NCBI GenBank assembly: GCA_963924565.1
Contig: OZ004607.1
Span: forward strand, 25,606,001-25,670,000
DNA from: Ascidiella aspersa
Lineage: Eukaryota
Direction of reading: 5' to 3'
Length of the DNA: 64,000 bases
Shown: positions 30,001 through 57,000 of the stretch, piece by piece
Layout: the number at the start of each line of letters is the position of its first letter
Numbering within the stretch: the stretch's first letter is position 1
Position numbers and translations under genes: made by a program
The notes under the pieces: generated by a model
What the model saw: the letters and a program-made list of their open reading frames with translations, nothing else
Told to the model about the DNA's origin: nothing
Database searches by the model: none

Positions 30001-33000
30001 GTAAACAGTCGTGGCTACAACGGTAAAACAACTTCTTGTATGACACAGTAAAAATGTTGAAGATTTTCAAACTTTTAAGGGCAACAAAATTTATAGGCAT
30101 AATTTATGAAATTAAAAAATGTTATCAGTATGATGATTGCATATATGATGTTTTAAAAACTTACCTTGAGTCGTTGCTGTTATCGGAACTGTAACAAAAT
30201 ATATAGTGCATTACTTTTAGGCATAAATGATGTTGGGTACATTATTTATTTACGCACAAACCGTGCAAACAAGTGCTGAATCTGACCTTAACCATTCAAG
30301 TTCGTTACGGCTGAGATAATTTATTCTCTTACCCAATTTCTCAAGTTGTATAAAGCAATTATTCAATCAAAAAACAACACTAGAATGAATAAAATACAAT
30401 AATTACATTCCAAATTTGAACAGTACGAAATACTGATACTACTTTTCTATTCAGATTTGAAATATAGAAGTTCATTTGATGGCCACACATACCCCCTTAA
30501 ACTGCCCCCTTGGTGGCAATTACTCACAGGTAAAACAAAATCATAAAGCGCGATTAGCGAACAATGCGACGTACCAGAACAGATGAGGTCGCGGATCCGG
30601 TTGGCCTCTTTGGGAAGACTCGCGAGTCCGTGAGGCACCGCGACGATCCGGGATCGCGCAAAGTCCTCCGTCGAGTTTATGATACTCTGCGTGGCGCGGA
30701 TGAATCCGGGCATCATCGGAACAGCGACCACGAATATTTCGACTCCGCTCTGTGAGGCGGACTTGAGAACTTCCGGAAGTCGCGCGGGCGCATCGAATGG
30801 CGCACCCAGCGGTGCTTTACGCATTTCCACGATGGCCACTTTGCGCGCGTGAGGTCGACCTCCTGCGTCAGCTGCGTGGAACGATTTTATGATTAGCGTC
30901 TGCATTTTAATTTGGGACGTTCTTTTTTAATTAGATAAACTGCTGCAGATATATTTGCAACCCGATGAAGACGACCTTGGCAAAAATACCATGGTTCAGG
31001 CCACAGTTTAGCAACTTAACCCCACAGCGGACAAAACCTAATACAACCAGGTTGCAGCGGATGTACTAAATTGCAATTCTTCTTGATAACTACGTTCACT
31101 TATATTTTATTGTTTAATAGAACGTGCAAAATATGCCTAAATACATTTTATTGTTGACCATACCGAAAGTCAAGAACACCTTGACTGTTTCCAAAATACT
31201 TCATCCATACATACTTTAATTTTTGATTACTTCCTCAACTCACGTCCAAACTTTTCGTCCAACGCTTCTTCTATTAATTTTGAAAAATCTGTTTTCCTGT
31301 ATTGCCCGGGGTAATCCAGGAGACTCAACGCATTTTCCAAAGCGGAGGGAGTGTCGAATGATCCAAAAGGGAAACCCCGCGGGAAAGTATCGTACAAGGA
31401 ACGATCGTAAAAGTAAACAGCGACCTAAATAAATAAAATAATTACAGAAGAAAAGCATAGCGCATGACTTAACTAACTTAAGAAACTACAGCATAAAACA
31501 TTTCGAGAATGCACACAACAGTATCGCACACAACTGTCATTTGCTATGCGAAGAAGAACTGTTGCTACAAACCTCGGTTTGGTTTTTCCCGATTGGCAAC
31601 TGCTCGGTCACGTTTCTTAGAAGTTGAAGGTGTGGCGTTTTGGCATCAGTCACCGAACCATCGAGCAGAAACATAACGTCGGTGGCTGGCATCGAAGTGC
31701 ATTCTTAAAATAACAAAGGCATATAAATATAAACACAATCTGCAATGTAGGCCAATTAAAATTAAAGAAAGTATTCAATAGACAACTAAGCCTTAGTTGT
31801 GTACTCACCTGGTGTAAACGGGCCAGTTGTTGTTTCAATTCTTTGGGTCGTAAATATTTCGGTCGTTTCAGTCAAGAACGTTACTTCAGTTGTAACTACG
31901 TGGGTTGTTTCAGCAGCTGTTGTTGTGCGAACAACGTGGGCTATAAAACGAAACAGAAATATTTAAAATGACATGGTGTCGTCGTATTGTTCTGTTTTTA
32001 TACACATTAGGGTGAACAATTCAAACAAAGGTTAGACATTTTAATAAAATTACTGCATATTTACAGTTTAAGAAAGATACTCACGAAGGCATATCAAATC
32101 TGTAAGGTTGCTGACTATGCTTGGCAATTGTTGGAAACTCTTTGAGAGCACAATCACGTCACTTTTGTTCAGCGCAGGTCTCACCACGTCAACATACGCC
32201 GCCAAAGAGTCGCCCATGTCCTCATCTGGTGGAATCACCAACGCAAATACTTCTATGCCGTGTTTGAGTGCGGCCTTCAAAACTGCTCCAACTGAAAGTG
32301 AATGCGAGGCGCCGATTCCTGGGGATAAAATAGGTGCTCCGATTGGGGATCCACCAAGTTTCATCGGAGGTCCACCACCGGCTCCAATCGGAGGTGGTCC
32401 ACCACCAACACCACCCATTGGAGGTCCGCCACCACCTCCCATTGGAGGTCCGCCACCACCTCCCATCGGAGGTCCACCACCACCTCCCATCGGAGGTCCA
32501 CCACCTACACCTATAGGAGGTCCACCATCGCTTCCGATTGGGGGTCCACCTCCTGGTGATAAAGAAGGTTCACCTTTCATTGTTGGCATTCCAGGAACTA
32601 TTGGAGGATTAAGCCCTCCTACTATTGGTGGACCCGCCCCGAAGAACGCAAACGAGGGTTCTCGGATGTCGATTACCGCCACTTTTCTGGCATGTGGACG
32701 TCCTCCTGCCGATTCTGTTGAGTTAAATATAAAACAAGAATGTTATCGACAGGGCAGTGCATAATTAATAGGTTGCTCAGCAACAATTTTGATGCATAAC
32801 CTTTTTTGTCACAATATGTGTTTTATATGTTGATTCAGCTATGTGCAACGCATGTTTGGCTAAGAAATATTTGGACACGATCGAGTAAGCATAACCCGTA
32901 AGCAGGGCGAAATTAGTTTATGTGTATTATTAGGTCTATAGGACACGTTGCAAAAAGTACGAAGTTTGCTTTCACCAAAAAAGTTAGTTCAGGCCTTTAA

Positions 33001-36000
33001 AAGTCAGTTAAACTGCTGTAGGATTACTGAATGGCATATCTGTTTAATTGAGAAGTTTTCATTTTTGTGTAAGCAAATACATATGGATGCGAAAGAGATA
33101 TCTAACCTTATTTTTGACATAATTAACAGTTCATTGTATGGTTTTCAACCACGGACTGTTGGGATTGCGATACTTGTATTATTCTGCATGACACCTGTTT
33201 TGCGTACCGGAAAACTTTTGCGTAAACGCTTGTTTTATTTGCGGACTGATGCTCATCTCATATCGTCCAGGACGCCGAAGATTGTTGATCGCAGTTTCAA
33301 GATCTTGATGAGACTCGAAACGACTAAGAGGGAATCCCATCGGGAGGTGACCTTCTAAAGTATCTCCGTAGAAGTAAACGCCAACCTGTCAGCAATTTTC
33401 ATTCTCATGATGCGGCCATACTTTATTAATACTAGACATTTGGCGGGATAGACAACAACACAAAGTACATGTCAATCAAATTCAGTAAATTACATGTGTG
33501 TTGTTTGGTCCAAAGATGAAGTTGCTCGTAAGGTTGCGAAGCAGTTCCTTATAATAAGGAAGAGACACAGTTGCGGCTTGTTCGTCCGTCCTTCCGTCAA
33601 AAATAAAAAGTATGTCGGTAGGAGGAATTGTGTCGCAAATTGTAACTGAAATAACAAAAAAACAAAACATTAAATTTGCGTTTTCAAACAACTCCGGTGC
33701 CATGTGTTGCATATGGTACCTGGTGGTACAGGCGTCGGTGTTACGGACGTTAATATGGGAATTGTGGTGCCAGTAATTTCAGCTGTCGATGCTGTAGCAA
33801 GGGTAACGGCTGCCGTTGGTGTGGTGGAAGCTGGTAGCGTAGTGGTAGTTTCTGGAAGGGCTGTTTAAAAATATATACATGGTCAAACTAAGAAAATAAT
33901 ACACGAATTGTACCACGTTGATTTGTTTCTTTGTTGTTCTATCTATTACGAGTTTTAATAGCGTTAATTGCGTGAGGTACAAATTAACATGATTTTTCTT
34001 ACGAAGACAAATCAGGTCTGTCAGGTTCGCGGCCACTTCTGTGAGTTCTGAAAAGCTCTTCTTCAGAACAATTACATCGGACTTGTTCAGGGCCGGTTCG
34101 ACAACACTGACGTAATCGGCAAGGTCCGGGCCCATGTCGGCTTCTGGGGGAACCACCAAGGCCACGACTTCCACTCCAGCTTTAACAGCGTTGGCAACCA
34201 CCTCATCGACGCTCAGCGATGGAGGACCAACAATATTAAAATCCGGCATTTGGGGAAGGCCTGGAAATGAGGGCGGTGGTGGTGTCCCCATTCCAGGAGG
34301 AAAGTCCTTTCCACCATTTACAAACGACATTCCTGCGCCAGGAGGGGGCAACGGGGGCAGTTTGGGCTCACGGATGTCGATGATCGCTACTTTTCTGGCG
34401 TTTGGTCGCCCACCCGCTGCAACTAAAGAGAATAACAGCATACTGTAGTAGCAAGCTTGTATACTATCAGAGTGTGCTAAAGATTGACACCGGTTGCCAC
34501 GAGCGCGATAGGCAACAACAAAAACTCACGAAGGGCAATTTAAACACGCTCGTGAAAAGGCTAAAGACATGTTTTGAATGACATCCTGCATGGGCTACAA
34601 TACAAGTAAATCTGAATATGATCGATATTTGTCAACTTTCGAATGTTTGTCAGCAGCAAGTAGTGTTTCTTTGTTTAGAGTTATCGCAGAATAATTAGCC
34701 ATGTAAAACAAATATGGTTGTAGCGTAACCAGTAAATCCTTGCAAGACTATCTCACCGGTGAACTTCTGCTCCAAGGTTTTTTGAAGTGTTTCTGCAATC
34801 TCGGGAAAAATTCGCCCGGGTCGTTTGAGTTTGTCAATTGCGTCGTCCAGATCCTGACGGGTATCGAATCTGCTGAGCGGAAATCCCTCAGGAGGGCTCC
34901 CGTACACTTTATGGTCACCGTAGAAGTACACGCCAAACTGGAAAACGTATCAGATTTTATACACAAGACTTTTTATCTGGTTTCTTAAATCAGCCAAGTT
35001 GTAACTGGCCAGTATTGCAACGAAAACAACGATGATTTAATTTATAATATACTTTGTGCCTGCTAAAATAAAAAAATGAAATACCTGGGTGTTATGCGGC
35101 CCGAAGACAAAGTTATTGGTGAGATTACGGAGCATCTCTTTGTAGTAAGGAAGAGATGTAACGGCAGCTTGTTCGTCTGACATTCCGTCAAGGATAAATA
35201 AAATGTCACTTGGGGGCATCGTGTGACACACTGTTTACAACAAAAGAGTGGTTATGCTTTTAAAAAGTATAAAGCAAAATATAAGTATAAAACAATAAAC
35301 ATCTTAGATTATTTATTTTTAAAAAGGTTTTAGTAAAACGTGTTTTCCAAAACTAATTGTCAGCATACTAAAGGTTTCGGTTACTATAGGTTTGACTTTT
35401 CCCCATAATCAAGGCCTTGTTATAAACAGTAAAGTCCGATATTAGCTGGCCTTATCAGGATTATAGTGCAAGCAAGACAAGGCCAGAAAAATATAGACTG
35501 CGGTGAGTTCAATCTCACAATTTCGGCCATCACGGGACCGGTAAAAGACTCCTGTTTGCATGGGCTGTTCACTTTAAATAAATGTAAAAAATGGAAAATT
35601 GGAGTATTGCTTTAGATTAGAGTAACATAAGGAGTCTGAAACCTATTTTCTGAACATATTTTCATAAACAACCTATGGGACGAGATTTATTTGCAGTTGT
35701 GCATGTTTCCACTATCTGCTGCACTTACCAGGGAGAGGCGGTTGCGGCGTGGTGGGCAGGAGTGGTGGAGTTGCGCATACGGCCTGGGAAACGTTGCGTA
35801 GAAACACTTCGCTCTCGATAGCGGGCTTGGCGGCGACAATCACTCGACCAGCGTCCGCCACCAGCTTGTGTAGGTTCGGGCGATCCACCGAGTCCAGTCC
35901 CAGTGCAATAACTTGAAGCCACGTGCCGCCACGCTGAGCTTCCGCCCTTGCTTGGTTAAGCTTTTCGACCCAAGTGTCGTAGAGGTTAACGTCCTTAATG

Positions 36001-39000
36001 AAACAGCACATTTTTTTTATCTTTTTTTATCTAGCTTTTTGTTTTTCATTGGCAACTGAATTGTGTTTGTGTTATTATTGTCGGTTTCGTTGCTCTGAAT
36101 ATGTGATAATGGAAATCACCTAGAGCAAGATAAATGTCGACCTGAAATCCTGATCAGTAACACTAGAACACTCTAGCGAAGCTAGAAACTCAGACACAAT
36201 TAAAAGATCTTAAATGATACATAATAAAATTAATAAACATAGCTTTTTTTACATTTAATCACTTTTATTCAATTTAATAGCTTCTACTAAACTTTGATAC
36301 CTATAATAATAAATTAAATATCGTCAAACACAACAAATTACAAATAGCTACATAGACCCAAAACACGATAAAATAAGAAAAAACTATATGGTTGGCCAAA
36401 AATCGTTGTGCAGGATCGGGACAGAAGTGCTGGGAGTAAACCTTAATTCTTCCATCGGTGAAAACTGCAATGACGAAAGGAACGCCAGGACGTCTTCCGA
36501 TGTCCGACGGGTGCAACGCTCCGTCGATCAAATGTATCAGCGCCGCATACAAGTTAGTTGTTCCCATGAACATCTTGAGTTGCCTAATTCGCGCAATCAT
36601 GCCTGGCTTGTTACGCTTGTAGGTGGCCAAGTTCCATTCCTTGTTGGTTTCGTCGTTGCCGAACTCGATTAGGCCGACCTGCGAAGCGTAAAGCGATTCC
36701 TGGATGTTGGATATTACGTGCTTAAATATAACATTTCCGCGAAACAGATACGCCTATGCTAAATCAACTGATTATGCGGGAGATGAAAATGCATATAGGG
36801 GATGTGAGTAACATGACACCTATAAGTACATATAAAAACATTTGAAAACCAATGTAAATAAATTAACTTACAAATATGTATTATTTTAATACAAATCTGA
36901 AGTATTATTAATTATGTAATCTAAAGCAAAGGCTTAACAATTTACTTAATCTGAGTGGAATATAACCCGGTACTTCCGACTTGGTGAAGCCTTATGTTGC
37001 TTTACTTAACAATACACAATTACTTTTACCAAACAACAAAAACAAAATATCCAAATTAAAAGTTTAAAACAAAAAAGTATATAGAACAATAAAATACAAC
37101 TACACAAACCAATAAAACACATATGACAATAAAGTGTTACCCTGGTGGAGTCTGTGGCAATGTCAAATGAGTCAACCAGAGTTATTAGAATTTTCTTTAG
37201 GATCTCAAATCCAGCAGGCCCTATGCTTGCAGAAGCGTCAACGACGAAATAAACGTCGACCTCACAAGCTAAAAAAGCAAGAAATATTTAGGTATGATGG
37301 CACATTAAATATTTTCTATAGTCTTATGCAATTTAAGTAGGCTATGGGGTTGTTACTAACCACGACATAGTGCCATTTTATGGTAATTCGATCAGAAGTT
37401 ATGCTCAAATTAACCTAAGCTTACTTGGCGAAGGTGGTGGCCGCAGTTTAGGTGTAGTTGTGACGGCCATTGTTGTTGGAATCTCTAAAAGCAAAAATAT
37501 TTTGTTTTATTAATACGATAATAGATTTGATAGAGACATAATATTCTCTTTGCGAGAAGGTTCGAGGAAATTTTAACTACATTTCGACAAATAGTTTATT
37601 ATTGGCAAGTTAAGGAAATGTAACAAAATAAGTTATTCTAGTTTGATTTTTGCCAACGGTATATTAGGGTGTTCCTGACCTGGACAAACTGCATTGGTGA
37701 TGTTCAGGATGTTATCACGGAACTGTTCGCTTCCGCCGTTGAAGGTAAACATCTCATTTGGAGCCACGGCGCCCATCACTTGCGTCATGAGCTCATCAAG
37801 GAGGCGCTGTGGTCTCGGTCCCTGGGCTGCGGCCACCCCGACCACCACCACTTTGCCCCCCAGGTCCTGAACCCGGGAAATGTACCGGGGAAGGTTGACG
37901 TCGGCCTGCCCAGACCCCTTCCTTGTTGCCAAGAGCACAATCACCTGGGGAACGCCCGGACGGGATCCTGCGAAAAATATATAGTACCGTGAAATCGGAA
38001 ACAAGTTTAAAAGAGTGCAAGTCCAAACCTGGAAGTGAAGGTTCAGCAAAAACCTATACTTTTTATTTCGTGTAAGGCGAAATATTGTTGCTGCATGAAT
38101 GGTTGTTACGCATATTTTTTACCTGGAATTCTACCAGACAGTCCAGAGAGTAGAACATCCAGGGCGGACGCGAGGTTAACTTTTGGCGATGTAGAAGTGT
38201 CCTTTAGGTTATCGATGGCATCCCAGGTTTCCTGGAGGGTTCGCGGAGCGAGGGGAAAGTAATATTTTCCGCCCATTCCTATACTCTTCTCATATCCTAT
38301 CACGGACATCTATAGAAAAAGTCAGAAAAATTTACGAACGTTTAGTCCATTTTATCTATCATTGATACAGGTAGGTAGCTTATATAAGCATAAAAGTAGC
38401 CAAGCACCTCCAGTGGGTTTTGACCTTTTTAGTGTCGTTACACCTGAAAATAATTTTATTAAGGGGTAGGCTAATTACCCGCATTTAAGGACCACCTATC
38501 TACAATGAAAGCTTAAATATACAGTATAAAGACAACCAAATAACAATAACTAAATAGTTTACCAACCCTAGTTTTGTCCGGTGCGATTTTAAAATGTTCT
38601 GCGAACGCCTTTAAAGCGAGTTTGACGTTCTCCCCATTCACTCCACCTCCTTTTCGCATCCAGTTGGAAGCGTCCACGAACCAAGTAATGTCCAATTCGT
38701 CATTGTAGTTACACGCTAAAACATATACCACGAAAAATCATTTTTCGCGATTTAGAACCTAAAGGTATAGTTTGCCTAAAATTCCTGTGGTAGGCTGTTC
38801 ATTACATGACAAAGCAAAATAACAGTTAAAGTTTAGTTCTGTATGTGTGTAATGACTAACATAAGCTAAAAGAATTAAGCGAAATATAGGCTACATATGA
38901 CACTATTTTAAGAAGTTTGTAACGCGAAGAAAGACACCAAATCAACGGAAGACAATTTCAGTTCAAGTTTGTAAGCTTCATGAATCTACAATACGCCGGT

Positions 39001-42000
39001 GTAGAAAAAAGAAAAACATATTGTTAAAATTCCTCTAGCAGCAAAAGGAATCGCTTTGAAATATAGTAGGCTCACTGCAACACTCCTATATTTGAAATAA
39101 TTATATATCACAATTATGACATACAACAAAGTGTAACATACCGGTATATGTAAATATCAACATTTAATTACAAACTCACCTGCTGTTTTTCGAACTTCCG
39201 GTAAAGCTGAAACAAAACAAAAAGCATTTCAAGCACATTTAAATGGCGGACAGCTGACCTGAAAACTTAGGGCTAGTAACATTTCACACTACCTTGTACC
39301 AAAAGCACACGCCATTATCTTTTTATACTTAGATTGATCTAAATCCTACGCGTTTAAAGGTATGTGCATTTAAGTCAAGTAAGCTGAAATTTTGCAGCTT
39401 CCGCTTACGCTGGTCAGCATAAATTGTGAAAGGTAAAGCCACAGTAACACATTTTAATTTTGGATTCATAATGGAAAATCAAGATGAAGACACACAATGT
39501 GTTATTACAGTGTCGTAATATGTTTATGAACCTTGGTCATTAAGGAAACAATGCCGTAAAAGTTAGGGTTAGCCAAAACTTATCGCTACGTTTTACTCAT
39601 ATAATTAGTCTCTCACTTATCGGAATACTAGGTGTGGGAGGTGCAGTTGCGGCGGTTGTCGTTCTCCCACGGGGGTAGCAGATCATGTCGACGAGTTCCG
39701 AGGCCAGTTTCTCGGGCGCCACGTCATAACGCAGCTCCAGCTTGGCTCCTTCAAGCGCGTTGCTCCAATCAACGCGCTGCAAAGGTGTCGCGTCGTGGAA
39801 TATGTGTCCAAAATAAGCGAAGACAAACGCGTAACCTTGTGCCTTCATTTGCGTTACCAGCTTAACAACGTTGCGGCCTTTCGGCAATCTCGTAAGAACG
39901 ATAAAATAGAGCTTGTCGTACGTGTTCGGGCGGAGATGCCGGTTGAACACTAAGTCGCGTCCTTGATTTATTGCCATATGCAGCCTAAGAGCGTTGGGCC
40001 TACGATTTGCTTTAATTGCTGGTCGGCCACTGCCGTCGAAGCGACTCAACAGCGCAGTCTTGTTGCTGCCATCTTCGCTCATGTGGACGGTCCACTTCAA
40101 TGGCCTTCCAGTCATTGCCATTGAAACCCGGGCGTGGTCGTTGCTGCCGTCTATAGGAAACTCCGCGAACAAATGGTAGAACACGGCGTTGATGACTCGT
40201 TTTCGCCAAGGGATGTCAACAACAAGGCTATCTACGATTGCAAAAATGTCAATCGGTTGTAAGCAAGACGGTGCTGGAGTGGTTGTAAAAAGAGGAAAGG
40301 TTTCTTGTGTTGCCGTGGTCTGGTTAATTGGCCCAGTTGGTCCTGGTGTTGTTGATCCAGTATACTCCAAAGTAGTTGGGCTTGGTGTTGTAGACCCAGT
40401 GAACTCTTCCGTAGTTGGCCTTAGTGTTGAAGGTCCGGTAAACTCTACCGTAGTTGGCCTTAGTGTTGAAGGCCCGGTAAACTGTTCGGTAGTTGGCGCT
40501 TTTACAGTGGACCCAGTGAATTCTTTAACTGTTTTTGCTGACACCCCTATTGTTGTTGGTCCAGTTGGTATTTTACTGGTTAGACCCGTGGCAGTTGTTT
40601 CAGGTATGGTACTTGGAACATGAAATGGGACCCCTGACTCGCACATCATTTTATACACGGTCAAATCGATGTCGTTTCCAACTAATTCCCGCGAATTTGC
40701 TATCTTCCTGAAGAAGCCTTGAGGTCCGGCGACGTGTGCTAAATAACTCAATTGGAGCTGTCTGCCGTATCCCAAAACAACAAAGGTGACACCTCTCTGA
40801 TGCAAGTTAGCTAACACCTGTTCCTGAGCTCCGGTAAGATTTTCTGGCTTCGTGTGCATCATAATAAATACTGACGTATTACGCGGTATTGCAAGGGAGT
40901 CGGATTCATTTAGGACCCGAGACAAAGCAGCGCCTAGATTGGGGGTCGGAGTGTCGGGAAGACTCGGGTGTAGAGATACGTCAGACTTCAGGAACTTTTG
41001 AAGTCTCTTATTGTCTTCGGGAGTAATCAGGTACTGAGGTGACTCGCCGTATTGAACAATTCCAACACGTACACGGTTTATACCATGTTCGCCTGGAATA
41101 AAATTATAGGGGCCGAGCGTTCTGCCAAGCTTGCTTGTTGCGTCCATCATATTCAGCAAGTCGTGGTTGGTCACCCCGTCCGAGTTGTCCCACAGAAAGA
41201 ACACATCGGTTGGGTGTGAGCAGTAGGTTGGTTTGACGGGAACACGTCGCGGCGCCCTGCAAACCTTCTGTGCCACTTCTTCGTACTTATCAGGCAGATT
41301 GGCATCAAAGACGTACAAAATGTTGTCCACGCCGACCGTGTCAGTCCATTGGTGCTTGTCGTGAAAGTTGGAATAGGTTTTTGGCGAAGTGATGATGGTA
41401 AGCACTACATCTTTTTCAGCAAGTTCCGCTATGGTTTTCTTTAATGCCGTTTGTGAGCTGTCGCTTGGCTGACTTCCCTGTAGAACTAGGATTGATTTTT
41501 GAACACGTTTTTCGTCAAGCCTCGCACCCATTCTCAAAGAACCTAGATTTATCGAAATGTCCTCAAGGGCGTATTGCAGGTCAAACCCGTGAGGGTGTGC
41601 CTTGCCGTTTCTGTATACTTTGTTGTTCAAAGTCGACAAAATGTCCCAGTCAAAGTTCTGCGTGACCTTGCCTGCTTGCGGAGTGAACTTAATAACTCTC
41701 CAAACCCGATTGGCGGCGAGTGTTATCGACACGGCCGTGTTGCTCTCCGAAATCGTGATGTTGCGTAGCAGGGTTCGAAGTAACGCGAAGACAGCGTTGG
41801 TTTTGCGAGTTTTCTCGGCCAGGGTCGGCGCGTTGAGAAGTTCGACGTCGATGATTATCGCGAGATCGGCGACCATGGTACACGATTCCAGTGGCGCAAC
41901 CGGAGTCGGCGTGTGTGTCACTACTGGCTGTGGGGTTGTAACGCCTGTGGGTGCTGGAGTGGTCGTAATCTCCTCATTGTGTCCCGGGCACAGATCGTTT

Positions 42001-45000
42001 AAAATGGCGAGCGACACGCGACCGGCTTCGCCCGAGAGTATTTCATTGACGGTATGGAGGTGATAAATATGAACCAGTTCGGTGCCAGCGAAGTGATCGT
42101 GATTACCGGCGGCGTGATCCCATATAGTGAGAATTATTACCTCGATGCCATGATCGTTAGCGAATTTAACCCCTGCAGTGTAGTTGCCGTGTGGCTCGCT
42201 AAATGTGATCACGAAAATAACGTTGTCGAGCGTTTCACCGTGCATTGTTTTGTTAATCGCTATAAGCTCCTTGGATGACCTAATTATAGCTTCCGTTAGG
42301 TCGTTTCGCCGGCTTCTCTGTGATTCTAGGTCGAAAATCGCATCCGTGATAATGCTCATGTTTTGGAAGTGACTGATGTTAAACGATACCTCGATGTAAT
42401 CGCCGTACTGGTCCACTCCAACGTGCAGAGTCGTGTTAGGTGTTCCGTACGAGTCCGGTTTGATGGCTGCAATGTAAGTGTGCATCACCTTCTTGAGTTC
42501 GTAGTAAGATTTGGGCGATACATTATCGGGACTGTGCAGGAGATATATGAGATTTACTTTCCCGTCACAGTATCGCCTGGTCACCGTTACAGCTTTCACT
42601 CCTTGCCAACCTGTTGTGGTTGGGAAGGTTGGTTTTGTGACGTTTGGGGTCACTTCTGTGGTTAAGCTTGGGGTCGATGTGACTTCTGGGAGACCTGCTA
42701 GCGTAAGAGGTCGAGTGAAGTTGGCACCAAACGAAGTTACGTATGGCGTTGTGGCCACTGATGTACATTGCACGTTACAAGCTTCGGTGCACTCGCTGTA
42801 AACACAAATAAAACGTACAATTAAACATTATTTATCAGACACATGATCAGTATCTTCTCAATAAATTGAAATTAATATATAAATTAATCTTCCGCAAGTG
42901 TCATTGCTTTAAATGTTACTTATTCAATACATTATGAAATTGTGTGACGTCATGCAGAAAATGGTTACAAAAGTCTTTCAGGAAATTTCTATGTTCCCTC
43001 GAATAAACTTATGCCGATTGGTTTCTTGAGTGCAACCCGTATATTTACCATCTGGTTGGTCCGTCATGAACAACCAAGTCGCCCACGTTATAGTATTGGC
43101 CGCGAGCGTGGCAAGAGTTGATCTCGAAAACGCATGACTGAGTCTTGCCATCGAACGTCAATCCTGTAATTGGGTGTAACAAAAACAGTACAGCTCATCT
43201 TTAGAGAAAAACACTTAAAAGACAATAATTATTTAAAAAATGTAACAAAACTTCATAAGACAATGTTAGCTTGATAAAAGTTATTTAAAATCACATCAAA
43301 GTATTTAATAAGAATGTATAAAAAAGCCGGGGTGAGATACCCCGATTGGGTTAGTTTTTAGAGGCCTATATCGTCGGTACGGAGTGCGCAAGCCTCAAGC
43401 AGACTGGGCAAATATATCGCGTGTAATACCTTCTGGACAGGTAGGGAAGCAACCTTCAACACAAGCAATGCCTTTTGGACAAAGGTTGCTGTCGCTACTG
43501 GGATGATGGCAAAGGGTGCAGGCCGGTGCGCACGACTGGTAATGCCACATACACTCCGTTTGGTCTTGGTTGAAAGCCTCGCACATCAAAGCTGAAAATG
43601 TTATGAATGCAAACCAACAGTGGTCAATAAATGGATTAACGGCAACTTTTAGGCAAATGTACCCTTAAGAAAAAAAATAATTTCACAAAAAGACCAGGGC
43701 GAGATGAACACTTACGACAGACAGTTGGCGTCCTCCATTTTAGTGGAAGCCCTGCGTTTGCACAAGCCGATGCATATGCTGCAACCGCGGTACAGAAGCA
43801 CTCGCAATCGCCTCCCATGTTACAACCGCATGAATCGAAAACACAGTTTTCGTAGTACCATCTCACATTGACCTAAATAACAATATTGCGTTTGGTGACA
43901 ATCCAAGTGTAGATATGCTCTTTTACAATTGTATCGTTTATTCTAAACTTAATTTGCAATCCTGCAGCAAAGTCATGCATACATGGTTCGAAAAAAGTTA
44001 TATGTCACAATGGTGGGAAGTATAACTTACCAAGGAGTGGCAGGGGATAAACATGCTGCTGTATAAGATTTTACAACTCTTTTGTGCCCATGGCATGCGA
44101 GAGGGATTGAGTAGACATGGGTTCTTCAACGTAACGACGCTGTCACAGTTAGGAGAGGTCTTTTAAAAACAAACAATTGTTTTAAGGTAATATTTAAATG
44201 CCTAAATCTTAATTAGTAGGTAATAAACCTATCTCTGGTCAAATAACATGCAAGACATACAACTGAAAATGTATAATTAATGTTTTATTTTCCAACCTTC
44301 CAACTGTTTCCGAACTCGAATTGGTTGACGGCTTGCATTCGGTCGCTCTTGGTTTTGTCATTGTTTTGATTCCCATCGAAGTTGCCGCATAAACCACAGA
44401 CCCGACCCTTTACATAGGTGTAAAACGCAAATTTTAAAGCTTAACCAAACAGATTTGTCTACCACACAAAGCGACAAATCAATTTCCAACGAGAACGTGT
44501 AATAAAGTCAACCAGTGCATCAAATTTAACGGTAAAAAATATCACCCACCTTCCACTTTGGATCGAGCCAAACAGTGACAGTCGACCTGCTGTCCCAGGA
44601 CACAGTAAGGCCGATGTCTGTAGTAACGATAGTCTGGAGACCAGCCTGGTGGTAATCCCACATGGCGTAAGTCCAGTTGGTGTGCGATCCGGGCGCGGGA
44701 ACAACCTTCACTGTTTTGGGTTTGTCTGAAATTTTTTCATTACAATTTTAAACTTAAATTTGACATACAGATTACAACCACTTGAAATAAATGGCCGTAT
44801 CCGAATCCAACGTGTCATACCGTATCCGAATCCAACGTGACCGAGTTGAATCGACACCTTGTCTTCGAGAGTGATGGTTACCCCCTTGGTGCAGGCGATC
44901 CCCCCTTCACCACACAAACCGTTTTCCACATGAATGCGAAAGCTGCCGGCACTGTTATCGCAGTAGTCCTGTAAAACCAATTTGAGGTGCTACTTGAATA

Positions 45001-48000
45001 TGTTAGGCGCGTTAGAGCAATGTTATGGAAAACAATACTCGTTGGAAAACAAACAATACATAATAAACCGAAATGTTACTCGTTTTATTCAAAAAAGTGA
45101 ATTTAAACCACCACATCAAAATTCGTCGTAATGTGAAAAATATAACAAATAATAGGATAGTAAAAGCGGGTAAATCTATAAAAAAATGTGTAATTTGTGC
45201 TCACGTGGGCAAGTATGTATGTACAGGATCCCATAAATTTATATGAATACCCGTCGAAGGTGATATAATGAGGATCGCCGTAAGCCAGGCATTGGCCGAG
45301 GCAAGAGTGGTTTGTACATATCCACTCTCTGTTCACACATTCGCTGCAAAACATAATATGATGATTGTATAGTCTAGTAGGCTACACAACCAACACGGGC
45401 GGTTGATACAAACTTTAATACGGATCAAAAAAAATGTTAATACGGATCTCGGTGTCAATCATCAAACTAAAAGGATGCTAGCTTTTTACAATATAAATGC
45501 ATCTCTTGTCATTTGAGTGGGCTTTGGAGTGTTAAAGCTTCGTCATACCATGTCTACGTTTATTTTCTGTTTTCTTTCCATAATAGGCCTACAGTTTTAT
45601 CACATATTTCTTAAATGTTTGTTTGTGCCTATACAATACAAGTACAGACAACGGCCTTTACCGAAATAAAACTTTGCAAACAAAATTGTTGCAACCAATA
45701 TGTATTTTATTATGGTTTGAGTCGCACATTTTAACACATGTTAGACTGGATCCTCTGAGTTTCAAATTAATTTTGAGCAAAAGCACAAGCAAAATGTTGT
45801 TACCACTTATTGCAGTCACGCATCAACGTATGCCCGGGAAAGAAGGGCCTTGAACTGTAGTAGCATGGGCAGTCGTGTTCCTGAATGCAAACGCTGCGTT
45901 CGACATCATAAACCTGGCCGTCCGGGCAGCCACAGCCCTCAACACAGGTAGCTGTAATAGTGTGGATAAAGTAAGAGCAAACATAAACTATCCGCTGGTC
46001 TAAGTATATTGTTTTATGACTATATCCTATACACTATATGTATTGGTCATTTTTGACAAAAGCCAACAAACAAATTACTTGAATAGCAATCGTCTCCGAG
46101 TGTTCGGCAGTTTCTTTGACATTCGATCCCGACCGAATGGGGGTCACTTGCGTTGCATGTTATAAGGGTCTGGCCAGGAGGGCAGGTTGCACCACCTGTA
46201 TAACATATTTTAAACGTGGTTAAAAGACAAACTACAGTCTTATTGCACTACTTTATTAAGATTTTTTTTCTTCTATAAAAACAAATGTTATTATATCGAC
46301 ATGACTCTAATTTCTACACAAAAGGAAAAATAAACATATTTGTGGGTGTTAACTAAAACTTACGGTTTCTTCTGCCCCCTCTTCCACCCAAACCTGGGTA
46401 TGGTCGCTTGTTGTAAGTACAAGTGAAACGGCCCTCCAAGCAGGCGCTGCAAATGGGCAAGATAATATATATATATTTAGAGTAAACACATGGTAAGTAC
46501 TAAGTAGTATTATCTTTAGTTAGACAGGCGGCTAAGTTTTTCAGCATTATAACACCTTTGCCAGTAAAATAGAGAGCTTAAGTTTCTACCAATTTTAATC
46601 CATTATAAAATTGTTAGGGATCTTTTTTGTGGTTTTCTATGGCAACAACATCAATATCCCTATAAATTGCCCAACTAACGTTTGTTAAGTATAGTCAACA
46701 AGTTAGAGTCACTTTACAGTGAGTGATGCTTTCACTAACCAGTTGGTATTCTTTCTATGCAGCCTGGCGAAGGGCCGATAGAAGTTGCCCTTGTGGTAGC
46801 AATGGCAGTGCGACTGCTCGACGCAGTGGCCCTCGTGAAGAAAGAGCCCGTCGGGACAGTTGCAGCCCTGGACGCAGGTTTCGTCGCAACGCACCGAAAG
46901 GTCGGCGATGGAGCGGCATGTCGAATAACAGGAGCTGGCGCACTCGCGGTACACCTGGTTGTTGTCGCACGTCACGTCTAAGGAGCGGGGGAAAACGTGT
47001 TTTGATCACTTAGGATTGAAAAAAGACGAAAAAATAGTCCGGGTCACGAATCCCGACTCAGGCCTAATTAACCGTATTCGTGGAGCCCCGTACCTGGCTC
47101 ACACTTCATAGCCCCATATTTCGCCCAACTTTCCACCCTATGCTATATCACCTTTTCCATTTAAAGTATGAGGCATAATCGGTTCGCAAGAAAAACGTCA
47201 GACTCGGGACTCTGGTAGTCTTACGTAGTTTATTCGATTACCGAGTCAGTCGTGAGCAAGAGCAAGATAATGAATCACCTAAAGCCAAACGCTCACACGT
47301 TGTCTTCTTAAAATGTCAAGGCGGGGTAGAAAAGAGCAACAACAGCCACACAATAAATATGCTGTTTGCTACCAGGCATAGTATACTACGGAACTGACAG
47401 GTTCTGAAAGATAACAACTGAGTTGTGCGTTGTCGTAATTATCGCTTTGTACTTTTGACAGTTGTTTCGCGCATTTTATCTCATTCGCTTCATCCGTTTT
47501 TGTGTCGTTTTACTTTGCGTCTTGTGGGCCATGTGTGTCATTCCCTGATGAAGGCTTTTTAAACAGCTAGTTAGCCAAAAAGGTTGGACAAACAAATATA
47601 TACTGAAGAACTTATTTTTAGTAGTACAACCACACAAGCCGTAAAATAAAAACTCACGACAGAATCTGGGGGTCCTCCAATTGGTCACGTGACCGGCGCG
47701 TGCGCAGACGCGTGCATAGTTGGCGATCGCGTTGCAGAGACACTCTTCTCCGTCCTCGCAAGCGCAAACGTCGTACACGCACTGATCGTAGTACTGCTGC
47801 GGCTGTATGTCCACCTGACAGGCGGCGAACGTGCTGCTGCGAATCACTTCGCATTCGGTGGAGGCAAAATTGGCTGCGAACGAAGGGTATTCAGTAAAGT
47901 CGTGGACTGATGTTGGGCTGGTTGGGTAAATATATATATGAACGACAATCCGATCCGATCTCAAATAGCGTCTTTAATATGTCAAAAAACAGAATCTAGT

Positions 48001-51000
48001 AACAATTGTTTTAAGTGTTGAAAAGTTAGCTACGTTTTATTTTTACCTTTTAAGACAAAGAGATGATTTTGTTAAACATCTACCATTATTTGTAAAATGA
48101 CGATATCCGTTTGGTTGGGGATTCGCAGCGAAGCAACTCTATATCAACCACTTTACATCCTGAATCGACTTCGATATGATATTTTCGGGCATTCCTATAA
48201 GTTTGAAATGGTATTTCTATACTATTTTATTCTTCCCTCGTGCACTTTCCAATACTGCGAGTAATTCGACACAAACAATTCGCTGGATTATGATTTTGCG
48301 GCCCTAACTTCTCCTGCAAGGACCGAGACGAATGACATCATCATTCTCATTTGGCAACCATGCGAATCTTGTGGCGACAATCAGGTTCGGATACGTTTAA
48401 CAATTTCTTGTTTCCCCAATTAAATGTCAAATATTTTAAGAAAGTGCCATGCCGACGGGCGACTTTGCCATACACCCAAAGCCCAGGCATGCGTACTTGG
48501 CACAATAAAACAAAGTTGCAGCATATAGTTTCCTTTGTAGACATTGTTTGGTTATTTTTGCAATGTTTGGACTCGAGAACGTTCATTAGGCACTCTTTAA
48601 AAGCCGCCGACTAGTAATGAGGAAACAAATCAATCGATTTATAAATTATGTGCATTAAGAACAATGACCCAGTTTATCCTCTTTTATTCGGTTTGAGTTG
48701 TCTTTATGCGACTGCAAAATGATCAAAGCTAAAACACTACCTCGCTTGTGATTTACTTGGCATGGCTCAAACAACTGATCGGAAGCTGTGTCGCGGCAAT
48801 CCGAATTAGCCTTCCACATGTTGGCGAACGTCGCAGGATTTTTTTCAACCATGCCTGGAAAATAACAGTTAGGATGTAAGTAGTCTGATATTTTGTCTGT
48901 AGCATCCACACATTAGTATTGGTAATTTACATTAAAAACTTGTTCATTGTTTGTTTGGGTAAGTGATTTGAGTTTTCCGCTGTTTAAACCTCCTAAATTG
49001 TCGACAATTGATAGTTGCCTTAACGTTGCCACACAAATCATCTGGGAAATAATTTTATTTTGTTACAATTCAAAGTTTGTTCACCTTTTTGTGCGTACTA
49101 TTCGAAGGTTTCGTATCGTGTTTTCCTACAACCATTGTTCAGAAAATCTGCTACGTTTTATAACTTTACGTTAACTTAATAAACTCTTTACTTTTCTATT
49201 CAGTACTTTAGCCTAGCAATTATAGATTGGCCTGGACAAAGTCGCATAAAGAATAAATGAAGTTTTTCTCTACCATTAAAATTCCTCATGTCGTTTATCT
49301 GGTTGTCATCATAGTTTCCGCATAAGCCGCACAACTTTCCCATCCATCTAAAAACAAAATTCAAATTTTATCACAAATACAAAAAATTATCAATTTTTTG
49401 ATTTTAGTAACTTTGTTTTTTTTGTTTTTTTGTTAAAAAAACAATATAATATTTTAACTTTATTCGTTTCAATCATCTGATAGCAAAAACCAAGCCTGAA
49501 ATTTATTACCATCAGACCTTCATTTTGTTTACACTCTACCTCCTATCAGCCTTAACGTATAGTCTTGACGTGCCATCCCAATCAACAGTAATGCCAATAT
49601 CAGAGCTAATCTGAACGAATGAGGAAGACACCTGTTGTATCTGGAAAGAATCTGTTGAAGCACAAAGTTGATTATGATTTAAACTAAAACCTTAATTTAT
49701 AAAACATTAAGATATCTTTGTTTTTATGCTTGAAAACAAGGTTAATCATAGTCAAGTATCAACAAATTAGTAAAACTAAAACTTCAAACTAATAAATTGA
49801 AGTACTGGTAATAAAGAAGTGATTAGTATAACAACGAAGGCTACAATGCAAGAATACTGAATGCTGGTTAGGTGTCGCAAACACCCGATGATCCCTAGTG
49901 CTATAGACAAAACAAACGTAGCAGTTAAAGGTTTTGTTGATTGGCGTATCTGCCTTGTGTCGTGATTGAATTGCCGTGAGAAAGCGCCATCGGCTCAACA
50001 ACATAGTAGGCCCCGGGACAACAGTCGGAAATCATCGAAAGATGTCTAGCGATAATTCGGGACATTTCTGCATTTTCCAACCGGTACCAGGCAATCGGTG
50101 CAGTCCGCCCAAGGATTCGTGCGTTGGCCTACAAATCGTTCGACGAACCCAAACAGGGGATGGAGAACTACACTCGACGAAACAAAGGAAGCAATCGCAA
50201 CGACCAGCAAGTGCTTGTGACGCAGTAGACTAAGTGGCAACAGCGTGCGAACTATTGCGAGTAAGGCGTATCATAAACCCGCGTGATCTGACTGTAATCG
50301 TACAACAGCAGACTGCATCATAAGCTATGTTTTTCTGGACAGAGTTCCATGTCCAATTACAGACCGGTCGAAAAGGGCAGTCCAATTACCGGAAGCGATT
50401 AATCATGCATTGCGCCCCTGTTGAAAGTCGCCTCACCTCGGATGAAAGGCAGTCCCACAATCTTTTCGTCCACGGACACCGAATGTCCTTGGCTTAGCCT
50501 GATCGTGACTCGTCGGGGTCGCACGGTTCTGTTCGAGTTTCTCGACGCCCTAATGCCCGGCGCAATGTTGAAAGCAACGGTGACGTCTTTGGTGCAAGTG
50601 ACCATCGTGTCAGCGCCGCATATCGTGTTGTCCACCACCACGCTGTTTTTTAACCATGTATTTAAAAATGCATGCTTTACTCGCAAATTAATGTCCACCT
50701 TTCACTTTAAAAGTGGAAATCTTTCTGAGTTGTCTATTTAAACACCATTGTAAATTAGGCGCGTTGCAAACAATGCAAACAAATAAACAATCACATAACA
50801 AAGACACTATTTAAAATTCCAAAAAGAATTCAGCGGTACAACCTAAAGATATTTATAAAAAAGAGACAGCGCCTTTTTTGTCCTACACAGAATCAATTTT
50901 ATCTTGGCGACTTATTTTTAAAACTAGCTCCTATATGATTGCTACCTAAAAAGCGAACTGTGACTGCAGTCTTTCGTGAAGGTATATTGACACTCTCCGT

Positions 51001-54000
51001 GCATTGTGTAGATCTGTCCGTCGAAGGTTGTGTAATGAGGGTCACCAACTGCTGAGCACTCCGAAGGACAAGACAACCTTGTGCAATTCCACATTGCGCT
51101 CTGGCATGTGCTAATAGAAAGAACAAATATTTTGTACCATACAATTATTGCAGCCACTTTCTTGTGAACAATTTTTGTAATCTATTTAAACTTTTGAGGT
51201 TTATCACCACTTGCCAGGATAAGTAATAACAAACATAGTGTTTCCTATGGTATAATGTAGATTGCTACACTTTGTAACAGATTTGACATGAATTGGTCGT
51301 GTACACTTGAGCTGATTTAATTTTTTTTTAATTCAAAATTATCTTTTGTTTTTCATTTTCCGCGTTTGGGACACGCTATAACATTTTTACCCAATGTCTT
51401 TAAATTGATTAAACCCGAAAATTTTATAAATACACCTGTTTTAAATATCGACAGCAAAACCTACCACGAGGAACAGTCCTGCTCGAGAACGTATCCCACT
51501 GGGTGTTCGAGGGAGTTATGGATGCAGGGACACTGGTCCTCCGGGACGCAGTGTCCGTCGTGGAGAAGAGTTCCAGGAGGACACACACATCCGTCCACGC
51601 AGTGCTCGTCACAGTCCGTGTCTGGGGTGACCAGGTTATGGCAGGACTTGGGGCACGAGCTTCCGCACTCCTCGTACATCATCCCCGTGTCGCAAGTGAT
51701 CGCTGCGGGCAAATGCGTATGACTTTTACAGCAGTAAAAATGCCGCCGAGAATAAACTGCAATGCTTAGGTACGCGCTTTGGAGACACATTAAGTTTTAT
51801 ACGTTACTGAATTTGCGAGCCTGGACGCAAAAATAAAGCGAGCAGTTCGGAGACACAAGCTTATTGCATGGCATAAACAGTACATGCTGTAACTAGAACT
51901 AAATAAAAACTAAACCGTTATTCATAAAGAGACTTTTGAATCAGACGTATGCTAATTCCAAAATAAGTTTCGAATAAGTTTGCAACATTGTCTAAGTCAG
52001 TACTTAAAGCTTTTCTCAATCTTTCGTCAGAATTTTGGTAGGTGTAATCATGAACAAGCAAAACGATGGTGGCCAACTTAAATACGTTTAACTAAAGCTC
52101 TTACGGCAAAAGTTTGGTCTTCTCCAGTCTGGCTTGATGTCGGTTTTCTCCATACAAAGGCGAGAATATTGTGACACGGCGGCACAATGGCACTCCGGCT
52201 GAAGTGTAGTCTGTAAGCGTGAATATAACACGAAGAAATGTAACTTTCGTAAAGCGAGAGATTGAAATTTATCGGTTCTTATTTGGTAAAACAAATGTGT
52301 TTACACCTAAAATTAGAGTTAGTTGTGTTGGGTATATAAAAATGTATTCAGTGATTTACTACTTACCTTTTTTGCGTGTTTAGTATCGAAAGAGGTTCGA
52401 TTTGTACGTTCACATTTTAAATGCACTCATGATTTTAATTAAATCTCCACCCGTATAGCTTCGTCAATAGAACAATACCACAGCGCTTAAATATAAGATC
52501 GTTAAAATCTAAACCCACCTCACATCTACAAAGATCCGATACGCAGCCATCTTCAAGTGGTGTCGGATCCACCCCGGCTCTAATGCAGTCGGCAAAAGCG
52601 CCATTTTTCGAGATGAATATCATGCAAACTTTACGAATTTTCTGAAAATGTGTTTATTTTACAACATGTTTAAAACTTCAAAACAGACGAACGAAATAGT
52701 GTTACAAGTCGTTTAGGTGTTATATGGTTAAATATTATGTTACCCATTTCGACAATGTATATCATCAGATCGCGTGAATAACCGGGCTTTTACACTATAT
52801 CGAATCCTATTAAATCATGAAATATAAAAGCCTATATGTAAACCAGTCGGCACAGTTGTTTAAATTAAATTACCCAGCGCCAAGAAAGGGAACAAAATAT
52901 TACCTCTACATTTTCAGCGCTGACTCCTTTGCAGTCGTATTTTAACTTGCTCACTTCCTGGCAATGTGTATGTATCCCCCTAACGTTCCATTCCCTGGCC
53001 CAAAACAAGGTGTTGCGGGCCGGCGTTTCTAAAATACGATTACGCATTAAAACATGATTTTATAACCTGTTCAATTGATGGCGCTAAGTTTTTATATGTG
53101 AATAAACGTTTGGTTAAATTGGTTTTTATAGTTTATAATTATATCAATATATAGAAAAATTAAGCTCAGTTCAAAGGCATTAAGCTCAGTTCAAAGACCC
53201 CATACAAACTTAAATGAGCCAAAATTTTCGCAACTTAATTATAACAACCCATATACGTATTGGTGTCACAAATCCGTAATACTGTAATTATAAGATAAAT
53301 AATAATTCAGGCAAATACGGAGAGCGACCCACTGTCTTTCAGTTGCATATCGTTCGAAGAGTTGCCGTCTGCGTCGCCACAAAGCCCGCAAAGTCTGCCG
53401 CTGTAATTGTTCTCGTGCAATTCGATTTCAGCAACCCCCTTGCCGTTCCACAGCAGTATTATGCCAATCTTGAGAGTCACTCGCAGGTATCGCCCCACCT
53501 TGGAAATGGAGAACATCGGCTGGGCGTAGGTGTTGTGGGTGAGTCTACGAACAGCAACGTATAACGATAGTGTACCAACCAGTAATATTAAACACAACCC
53601 AAAGAATAACTTCTGTTGTTTAAACATCAAACAACACTTTATTTGTCGTCACAATCACAATTTCGTTCACACGAGCGAAACACCATACACGGTTACTAAA
53701 GTTTTAGGGCGCTCTTTAAATAGTAGGCTAACAAAAAACATAAAGTAACTAAAATATTATGAAGCGCCAAAAAAATGAAAAACTTGGCCAAATATTGCCA
53801 GTCAACTAACAATGGAAATGTCGAATATTTCTGTCAAAAGTTCAACCAGGTAAATGTTGCTAATTATTTACTTCAGAATACATCACTTATTTATCTCAGG
53901 TTATTTACAGAAATGGTAATTTAGTGAGGAATATTAAGTAACTAAAAGGTATGCCTATTATTACTTACACAGTTCCGTTTAGCAAGGCCACGTTATTGGG

Positions 54001-57000
54001 TAACAAGGTGAGACTAGGAGAGTTTCCAATGTCAACAACCAGAGCCATAAAGTCCTTAGTTGCGTTGATGAGTGGTTTCAAATCGTCGTGGAGCTTTAGA
54101 ATATCAAAAAGTTAATCCTACATTGCATTTTAAAAGATATTTAATTCGTTTTAAAAAAGTATTATAACGAAGGCTAAATATATTAAGTTACTTTGCTGCA
54201 TTATGATAACAAGTAAGCAATATTTTGGAATGATTTTTGTGAGCTATAGGTATTTATCACTCTCATTCCCGATGTACCACGATATAATGCGGAACCGCGT
54301 TATTCATAATTACGTTGTCGTATAAGGTTTGATTGGAGATCTCGCCGGTCTCCCGTTCAATAGGTGCGTAGTCCTCGATGTTCTTTGACAGCTCGATGCT
54401 GAAAGTGTGGTCAGGGCAGTCCTGGAGCATTGTGTAGTGGCAGCGCCCGGGAAAGTCGTAGGAGGATCCGTCGAATGTGCGAATGTGGCGGCCGCTCCAG
54501 ATCGCACAAGTGGCTTCGGCGTGTCGTTTTCGTGTCGCTGTGTTGTCCGGAAAGTTTTCATGTTATATTTTCAAAACAAGTATTTTTGCCTGCGACCACA
54601 ATTTAATTTTTTGTGCAAAACACTGAACAGTTTTTATTCAAATATAACACAACAACATCATTTTAAACGTTGTATTACGTCAGGTTTTTTTCCAAAAACT
54701 ATAGTCTTTTTTTACTGCGATCACTATTTAATTGTTTGTTCAAAACATTGAACAGTTTTTGTTCAAATAATAAAACAACAACATCATTTTAAACGTTATA
54801 TCACGTTATATTGTTTTCCCAAAACGTGTTATCACATTCGTTATTGATCGTAGAGCAGTGTTCATTAGGGTTGGCTTAGCCTACCTAAAATTTCTGCTAC
54901 AAAAAATCTTTAAATCAACAAACTTGTGGCTGTCACGTCCGAGGACCGTGATCCGAACAGTATTACAAGTAAAACCACAGCCTATCCTTTAGCAAAACTG
55001 GGGTACGGGTACCTTACAAAATATGAAGGCTACTTGACTATGGCATTTAAGATTCAGCTAAAACTAACTTGTTATAATGAATAGTATATATTTTAAAGTA
55101 ATGTTTTGCGACATTGTTGGTAAATTGCAAGCTATATATTACTAAGTTCGCAGTTGGTTCCAGCGTATCCCAAGCCACAGAGACATACATCAGGAGAGAT
55201 ACACGTTCCTCCATGTTGACATCGCTTCGTGCAAATAGCTGAAACAATCGTAAATTAGTTTTTATCCTAGTAAAAAATAATTACAAAAAGAACAATATTC
55301 TGCATAAAAGGTGTTACTTTTTTTTAACCATAATTGTATTATGCGATTTGGTATGTCTCATTTTTCTGACCAAATACTGTGGCTGTAAAACTCCCCGCCT
55401 AAATTATTGCCAGGATGAAACTGAATTGCACTCAGAGTAATAAAAGTGTATCGTTATCCAGGCTGTTAAAGTAGAGCATCTAAATCAGCGGTTTCCAACA
55501 AGCGGCACGCGTGCCAAATGTGGCACGCGACCTAATAAAAAATGGCACGCAAGCCCTCCCCAAAAAAACTAAAATTGTTATTTCGCCATTTGCCAAAAAA
55601 GTTCAATTTGTTATTCAGCCAATTGTCAGAAAATACTAAGTTTGTTATACATCCAATTGTCATTGTTTGTTCACAATATAAAACAATCGCGGCAATCACG
55701 ACAACCAACAATTACTTTTAATATGGTAACATTATACTGTGTGAAGGCTAGCATTCATATATATATATATAGCTTGGTGTTAAGAAACAAGAAGTCAGCT
55801 CACCGAAAGACACTTTGATGTAGTGATGCGCATTTCTACACGACATTTTTTTTTTCAAGTTTAAATAAACGTTCTTATTTTTGGTAAAAAAGCGCTTTTA
55901 TGATTAAAAAAAATTGGTTCGGTTACGAAACTTTGGCACGGGAAGAAGTTATAAGATAAAAATTGGCACGCCGGCATGTTTGAGTTGGACACCCCTGATC
56001 TAAGTCATAAGTTTACTTGTCTTATACTTACGAAGCTCACAGGAGTGACCATGCCATTTCCCCCTGCATTTGCAAGTATCTGGTGCAACACATTCTCCGT
56101 CGTGTTTGCAATCAGGACTACAATGTGCTATTAATAAACGAAATATAAGCAATATTAGAACAACATATACATGATGAGAAAACCTTGAATCCATATGTTA
56201 GATCAGTACTTGTCAACCTTTTTTGGAATAGTACACACTTTTCCGTTTACTGAAGGTCTTACACCCCCAGTCCACGCAATGCACTTAACCGTTATAAAAT
56301 AACTAGTTAGTACCTCACAATAATGATTTATCAAGATAAACATTTGATTATGATGTCACAAATAGAACATAGCATCTTATAAGTAGGGCGAATATTTTTT
56401 GACCAAAAAAATAGGAAATTTTGACCTGAAAATTTAAATTTTGACAAAGTTTAACCTAAATATAATTCATTTTGACAAAATTTTGACCTGTTAGAAATAC
56501 ATTGATTTAAATGAGCGCGACATTAATCACGCGTTTTTTATACCGTATATTGCTCTAATAAAGATATAATACGGTTAAAATGACTTTTAACACAAATCAA
56601 AACTAAATTTTTTTGATAAAATTGAACGATAAATTTCAAAACAACTGAACGACGAATTTCAAAAAGCTGACTATATATTTTTTTTTATTTTTGTAAACGA
56701 TTTATGTGCATTTTTATTTGATTTTGACTTTACAAATTTTTGACAAATTTTGACCTAACGTGTAAATTGTGACAAAATTTTGACTTTTTTTGACAAGTCA
56801 AAAAATATTCGCCCTACTTATAAGCTATGTACGCTTAAATACATGTTGTGCCATGTATTTGTACACTACAATTAGTCAGGTAATAATACTAATTATTGTG
56901 ATACCTGTTTATAGGCTTATTGTTTTGCGGTATCATTAGACCCTAGTACACCCCATCAATGTGGTATATCCTTTAACAATTCTGGCACGCCCTGGGATGC

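Follow-up and report, generated by a model that had tools for sequence, protein, structure and literature searches.

Gene Organisation and Domain Architecture

The 64,000-nt stretch of Ascidiella aspersa DNA analysed here (the window) carries on its minus strand a gene for a large VWF-like protein with a head of the D1-D2-D'-D3 polymer family, in which the alignment matched 110 of the 115 cysteines of horse VWF. The gene model comprises 35 exons from 59691 to 39700 (-), with GT-AG boundaries at 34 of 34 introns, and codes for 2540 residues without a stop codon. A predicted signal peptide is encoded by two exons (59691-59634 and 59291-59258, minus strand), where a hydrophobic ORF continues in frame through a strong phase-1 donor; this start exon was picked by inspection, and another candidate at 59460 was dropped when an extra exon matching Ciona fixed the phase. 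Six EGF-like domains, one per exon, follow at 55143..58574 (-) and are colinear with residues 75-261 of the Ciona intestinalis "mucin-2-like" protein P0220 (48-83%).

The D1 assembly (VWD1-C8-TIL1-E1), together with the start of VWD2, occupies 50946..54537 (-), as delineated by Pfam VWD and TIL matches, the model, and the alignment. The remaining part of D2 (VWD2-C8-TIL2 and the start of E2), with Pfam C8 and TIL matches, lies at 46740..50642 (-). Both assemblies retain the CGLC motif in the alignment. An 83-nt exon (46364..46446, minus strand) supplies the end of E2 and a Gly/Arg-rich linker, and the first D' exon (TIL', 46079..46195, minus strand) contains the predicted mature N-terminus G-A-T-C from 46193. 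The remaining D' and the D3 assembly (43049..45951, minus strand) include Cys1389 and Cys1430, the equivalents of VWF C1099 and C1142. The position of VWF His395 is kept, and the column of His460 holds Gln; in VWF, these two residues serve as pH sensors.

Compared with solved structures, the TIL2-E2 exon scored 112 bits with VWF and 65 bits with MUC2, the C8-2 exon did not discriminate, and the TIL' exon had VWF D' (2mhp) as its best PDB match, a weak one (E 0.31); the latter exon is also 44% identical to residues 1039-1081 of Ciona P0220. Neither the TIL2 exon nor the large VWA exon found a match in word-based homologue searches, and scanning metagenomes with the TIL2 alignment turned up no relative.

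The central region (4290..42795, minus strand) contains at least 21 VWA-type domains with Pro/Thr-rich spacers, recognised from Pfam VWA matches in two long exons and from 21 VWA-start motifs. The first big VWA exon matches residues 1532-2299 of Ciona P0220, and the array presumably resides on the same transcript as the D1-D3 head. A probable D4 assembly (VWD4 and the start of C8) was recognised at 330..2570 (-) from a Pfam VWD match at 2254-2619 and exons read by eye. The gene extends past the window end inside D4, and any C domains and cystine knot would fall outside the window.

An intact D-x-S-x-S metal-site motif is present in only one of the 21 VWA starts (at 37266, over 42569-5528 on the minus strand), and most of the VWA domains are therefore probably metal-free. 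Four or five near-identical VWA units with a spacing of about 2 kb are located at 21400-29300 (-), with starts at 28202, 26270, 24243, and 22397, and apparently represent a recent tandem exon duplication. Gly/Pro-rich inserts with G-G-G-P-P repeats interrupt VWA domains at 32068-32742 and 34050-34400 (-), and a VWA exon at 16936-17490 (-) carries an insert of N-G-K/N-V tetrapeptide repeats. A short PTS-type repeat, P-T-G-P-T-T-T/I-G, was found at 10621-11055 (-); thus, small mucin-like spacers occur between VWA domains. On the opposite strand, an ORF that opens with a hydrophobic stretch and then reaches a likely donor (61747-61850, plus strand) suggests a divergently transcribed signal-anchor neighbour about 2 kb upstream of the VWF-like gene. 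Imperfect tandem repeats of about 21 nt at 62390-62670 are probably non-coding.

The Splice Junction at the E2-TIL' Boundary

The first-pass annotation had proposed that joining 46364 to 46195 creates a VWF-type propeptide cleavage site, R-R-N-R/G-A-T-C, and in the sequence this join was upheld as a predicted canonical GT-AG junction with the best local donor and an open model. The minus-strand exon stops at 46364 (AAC C/gtaagt), and the following exon opens at 46195 (tacag/GT GGT); the predicted 168-nt intron between them (46196..46363, minus strand) is a phase-1 intron that divides the P1 Arg codon, of which 46364 is the first base, and the P4 Arg codon begins at 46373. The predicted product reads G-G-R-G-G-R-R-N-R, then G-A-T-C-P-P-G, and in the model numbering R-R-N-R corresponds to residues 1046-1049, with the P1 Arg at 1049 and the first TIL' Cys at 1053.

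The same annotation held that the final Arg codon exists only after splicing, which proved incorrect: the unspliced DNA already reads R-R-N-R-K-F-stop. The Arg is independent of splicing, because the donor GT provides the same two bases, and splicing contributes only the P' side of the motif.

In a splice scoring matrix built from the model's other 33 introns, donor 46364 reached 7.9 bits, the highest value among 20 GT candidates within 46440-46200, with the runner-up at 3.9 bits. The acceptor of the 46195 exon is weak (3.7 bits, second lowest among 34); three stronger AGs break the frame with donor 46364, and two other in-frame AGs score below zero. This weak acceptor and the availability of in-frame alternatives, such as donor 46394 located 30 nt upstream of 46364, would allow the main transcript to use another junction, in which case the motif would be missing from most molecules. 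We consider this very unlikely, since donor 46394 scores 3.8 bits against 7.9, the linker obtained with donor 46364 (22 residues) fits the 21 residues of Ciona, and the donor of a third orthologue (described below) closes an E2 exon of similar length, 77 nt versus 83 nt. Joining donor 46394 to 46195 would remove the entire basic stretch, a possible uncleavable isoform.

The position of the intron was considered as a sign of VWF kinship and rejected, since each of the four TIL exons in the model has such a module-boundary intron in front of it, in phase 1 and placed three or four codons ahead of the first Cys. A passage in PMC7109749 places the beginning of human VWF exon 18 at c.2282, which, according to our own codon arithmetic, interrupts codon 761, within RSKR, in phase 1. 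An intron at the site is unremarkable.

Register and Quality of the R-X-X-R Site

R-R-N-R ends three residues ahead of the first TIL' Cys, as RSKR of VWF does, so that the VWF register noticed in the first pass was borne out. Horse VWF reads R-S-K-R, then S-L-S-C, and the VWF furin site RSKR is assigned to residues 760-763 in the relevant part of PMC9169620. Judged from the aligned sequences, the site is positionally homologous to the furin site at the E2-TIL' boundary of VWF. Among the 111 Cys of D1-E3, only one is preceded by an R-X-X-R ending four residues before it; the naive chance at a fixed site is 0.003. R-X-X-R occurs ten times in the first 1600 residues of the model; therefore, the signal is carried by position and not by the motif.

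Efficient furin cleavage goes with basic residues at two of the positions P2, P4, and P6. The model site has Asn at P2, Gly at P6, and Gly at P1', being basic at one of these three positions, and departs from the VWF-type optimum of R-X-K/R-R with Ser at P1'. No glycosylation sequon is present within the E2-TIL' linker of the model, which, like the Gly at P1', speaks for cleavage.

The linker contains two overlapping R-X-X-R motifs, including R-G-G-R ending at Arg1046, as well as an Arg-Arg pair. A convertase could consequently cut a different bond, after Arg1046 or at the Arg-Arg pair, by an enzyme of the PC5/PACE4 or PC1/PC2 type and with later trimming; the propeptide would still be removed, and the neo-terminus would differ. 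Such an outcome appears unlikely to us, because the register with Ciona, amphioxus, and VWF is held by Arg1049 only, and the extra Arg residues are not conserved.

Two further basic stretches were observed in the model. R-P-R-R at residues 742-745 (50642-50437, minus strand), in a basic loop insertion of VWD2, is the only optimal R-X-K/R-R among the first 1600 residues; it is found neither in Ciona P0220 nor in locus L003 of the third orthologue, whose insertion there is not basic. R-K-R at about residues 264-266 (54537-54520, minus strand), between EGF6 and D1, could be another convertase site, one whose use would detach the EGF module; this stretch has no P4 Arg and is not found in Ciona, and acceptor 54537 is weak.

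Conservation of the Site among Relatives

The comparison set included 264 proteins, 263 of which matched D1-E3; no hagfish, lamprey, or ambulacrarian sequence was knowingly part of it. The cysteine pattern was parseable in 163 of them and in the model, and unparseable in 59, with another 41 too briefly aligned or without anchors. The in-register R-X-X-R is present in 57 of the 59 VWFs, in all 57 as R-X-K/R-R. The model shares it, as do Ciona P0220 (R-T-Y-R) and six entries from a single amphioxus group (R-E-G-R). None of the 97 other parsed relatives (89 distinct linkers) has it; these are mostly vertebrate mucins, many of them unnamed and labelled from similarity and composition. Among the 59 unparsed proteins, 22 were read, and none had the motif in the E2-TIL' linker. 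The length of this linker is 22 residues in the model, 21 in Ciona, 21-30 in VWF, 25 in the amphioxus group, and 9 (median) in the other relatives; linkers of equal length that lack an in-register R-X-X-R are found in three hemolectin-like proteins.

The view that the site is a VWF-like rather than a typical mucin trait was thus sustained with respect to vertebrate mucins, but the trait is not exclusive to VWF-like proteins: it is not confined to VWA-bearing proteins, because the amphioxus carriers of R-E-G-R are PTS/CysD mucins without VWA matches.

Conservation in orthologues, proposed earlier as a check, was found in Ciona P0220, where R-T-Y-R is in register, but probably does not extend to a third orthologue, whose E2 exon lacks the P4 Arg, unless the next exon provides one. 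The latter is represented by three near-identical loci of one species (L001-L003) with the same exon pattern. Its E2 exon ends with S-A-G-A-I and a C before a phase-1 intron, and, if the intron is placed as in the window, P1 could be Arg and P4 would be Gly. A TIL' profile detected no downstream exon within about 3.2-3.4 kb in L002 and L003, with the window as a control giving 61 bits. In L003 (6868-10285), the intron following the E2 exon is longer than 3.4 kb, versus 168 nt in the window.

An alternative is that the linker is merely a flexible Gly/Arg-rich bridge that stays uncut in the secretory pathway, the protein being secreted intact like MUC2 or nicked only extracellularly. This would fit a minimal motif that recurs elsewhere in the protein, with P2 and P' positions that are unfavourable in Ciona and amphioxus as well, with a glycosylation sequon at the Ciona site, and with the P4 Arg probably missing in the third orthologue; moreover, portions of PMC9169620 and PMC7599080 describe MUC2 as cut near the junction after secretion, without a furin site. 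It accounts less well for the two Arg residues, P1 and P4, which share one register across four divergent lineages whose linkers otherwise share nothing, and for the lack of any in-register motif in the 97 other relatives. We regard an uncut linker as rather unlikely, although it is the most credible of the alternatives weighed here. As far as sequence comparison goes, the motif is real and conserved beyond Ascidiella aspersa, and it is not proof of VWF orthology.

Phylogenetic Analysis

Phylogenetic trees were constructed with the linker removed, using FastTree for 39 rows and IQ-TREE for 25 of those rows. In the FastTree tree, the model groups with the mucins and the amphioxus genes, and VWF falls outside this group (support 92). 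The IQ-TREE tree left the base open, with the model and Ciona joining the amphioxus R-E-G-R protein at 60/55, and the motif requires two changes on this tree. In the AU test, the cost in log-likelihood units was 0.10 when the model and Ciona were grouped with both amphioxus and VWF (p 0.47), 3.90 with VWF alone (p 0.25), and 4.12 with vertebrate mucins (p 0.30), so that none of the three placements was rejected. A single origin of the site, an ancestral site lost in mucins, and convergence are all possible on these alignments.

Proposed Removal of the Propeptide

We cautiously favour the reading that, in this tunicate VWF-like protein, EGF6-D1-D2 is a candidate propeptide removed by a convertase, with a furin-family cut after Arg1049. 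The model contains the motif in the VWF register, a long linker, the corresponding domain order, the CGLC motifs, and the D3 cysteines; cleavage and assembly are proposed by analogy with VWF and MUC2, and a role in the endostyle by analogy with Ciona and Botryllus. In the acidic Golgi or a granule, D1-D2 would keep a pair of D3 assemblies together, as in VWF and MUC2, and Cys1389 and Cys1430 could then form interchain disulfides between the D3 assemblies. The exposed E2-TIL' linker would next be cut after Arg1049 by a furin-family convertase; in the parts of PMC9169620 that deal with the cryo-EM maps of VWF and MUC2, this linker is flexible and exposed. The EGF6-D1-D2 piece (1023 residues, 113 kDa unglycosylated) may stay non-covalently bound until secretion and then be released, leaving polymers that would start at G-A-T-C and carry more than 20 VWA domains.

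R-X-X-R is given as an accepted furin consensus in a passage of PMC9395820, and furin prefers basic P2 and P6 according to the inhibitor passages of PMC10107917. Since P2 is not basic here, the site is likely cut more slowly or less completely than that of VWF.

In endostyle mucus, the polymers would likely form threads with an adhesive or structural function. The Ciona VWFL genes are endostyle-specific (PMC8462739), and a vWF-like RNA of Botryllus was localised to endostyle zones and macrophage-like cells (PMC2527998). Ciona P0220 is probably one of these endostyle VWF-like genes, and expression of the Ascidiella aspersa gene in the endostyle may be expected by analogy.

Evolutionary Implications and Comparison with Known Systems

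The D1-D2-D'-D3 family and tunicate VWF-like genes are already known. In the comparison of VWF with MUC2 in PMC9169620, as far as that part extends, the furin site is found in VWF only, and sections of PMC9169620 and PMC7599080 treat the E2-TIL' furin insertion as a VWF-specific difference from mucins. A survey states, in the section concerned, that there is no apparent invertebrate VWF orthologue (PMC4948705), and a passage of a review mentions an ascidian "proto-VWF" as unpublished data only (PMC3308698). In the literature searched, which included few subscription papers and no supplements, no report of the site in tunicates or amphioxus was found. The site could already be described in the work on hagfish VWF (Grant et al. 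2017), in the first publication on Ci-VWFL, or in the supplements of either.

Since the Ciona and amphioxus relatives share the weak motif, this likely cleavage step may predate vertebrates. More tentatively, and with considerable doubt, one could hypothesise a proto-VWF: a single chordate lineage with a long linker and an in-register R-X-X-R that gave rise to the amphioxus mucin, to the tunicate EGF6-D1-D2/D'-D3-(VWA)20+-D4 protein, and to VWF, so that a cleavable propeptide would be pre-vertebrate. If so, blood clotting would have come after an endostyle mucus polymer that already combined A domains with propeptide removal. The presence of the in-register Arg motif in both a tunicate VWA protein and an amphioxus mucin allows a test of which of propeptide removal, A-domain insertion, and tubule storage came first in the origin of VWF. 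If uncleaved, the protein would be just another member of a known family, though a very large one.

The closest known system is Ciona P0220, which likewise has a signal peptide, six EGF, D1-D2-D'-D3, and then VWA. It is 58.5% identical over D1-E3, colinear exon by exon, and sister to the model at 100/100; the gene is, on these comparisons, its orthologue. Its site differs, being R-T-Y-R with Val at P1' and an N-R-T sequon overlapping at P5, and its database model differs as well (2451 residues, few VWA domains, and no D4).

The next-best match is the amphioxus "mucin-2-like" group with R-E-G-R (P0045, P0102, and P0151-P0154; 40-44%), which shares EGF-like domains (five), D1-D2-D'-D3, and the in-register R-X-X-R, but has a true PTS/CysD mucin centre and no VWA match. 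Another D1-D2-D'-D3 protein, P0213 of Branchiostoma lanceolatum, has an N-terminal VWA domain and no linker motif; therefore, VWA joined the D1-D2-D'-D3 family more than once.

The vertebrate gel-forming mucins (MUC2, MUC5AC, MUC5B, MUC6, and MUC19) and Ciona Ci-GFM1, a different, chitin-binding relative (PMC6109156), share with the model the D1-D2-D'-D3 head, the multimerisation cysteines, and the mucin-type G-G-D-C-E-C-F-C motif in C8-3. Their linker is short (median 9) and has no R-X-X-R, and a long PTS region forms the centre, where our model has VWA repeats with short P/T spacers.

Vertebrate VWF has the same D1-D2-D'-D3-A-D4 order, with VWA between D3 and D4 (provided that one transcript spans these parts in the window), a long E2-TIL' linker with in-register Arg residues at P4 and P1, the two D3 cysteines and the His395 position, and a phase-1 intron inside the motif, which in our model lies two codons further 3'. 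In 57 of 59 VWF sequences, the site combines R-X-K/R-R with Ser at P1', and VWF has three A domains and no N-terminal EGF, in contrast to at least 21 VWA and six EGF here; hagfish VWF has two A domains. N-terminal EGF repeats were rejected as a VWF trait, since relatives from amphioxus, Clavelina, and coral carry them and VWF does not. Over D1-E3, the model is equally similar to both families, with 34-36% identity to VWFs and 35-37% to two mucins.
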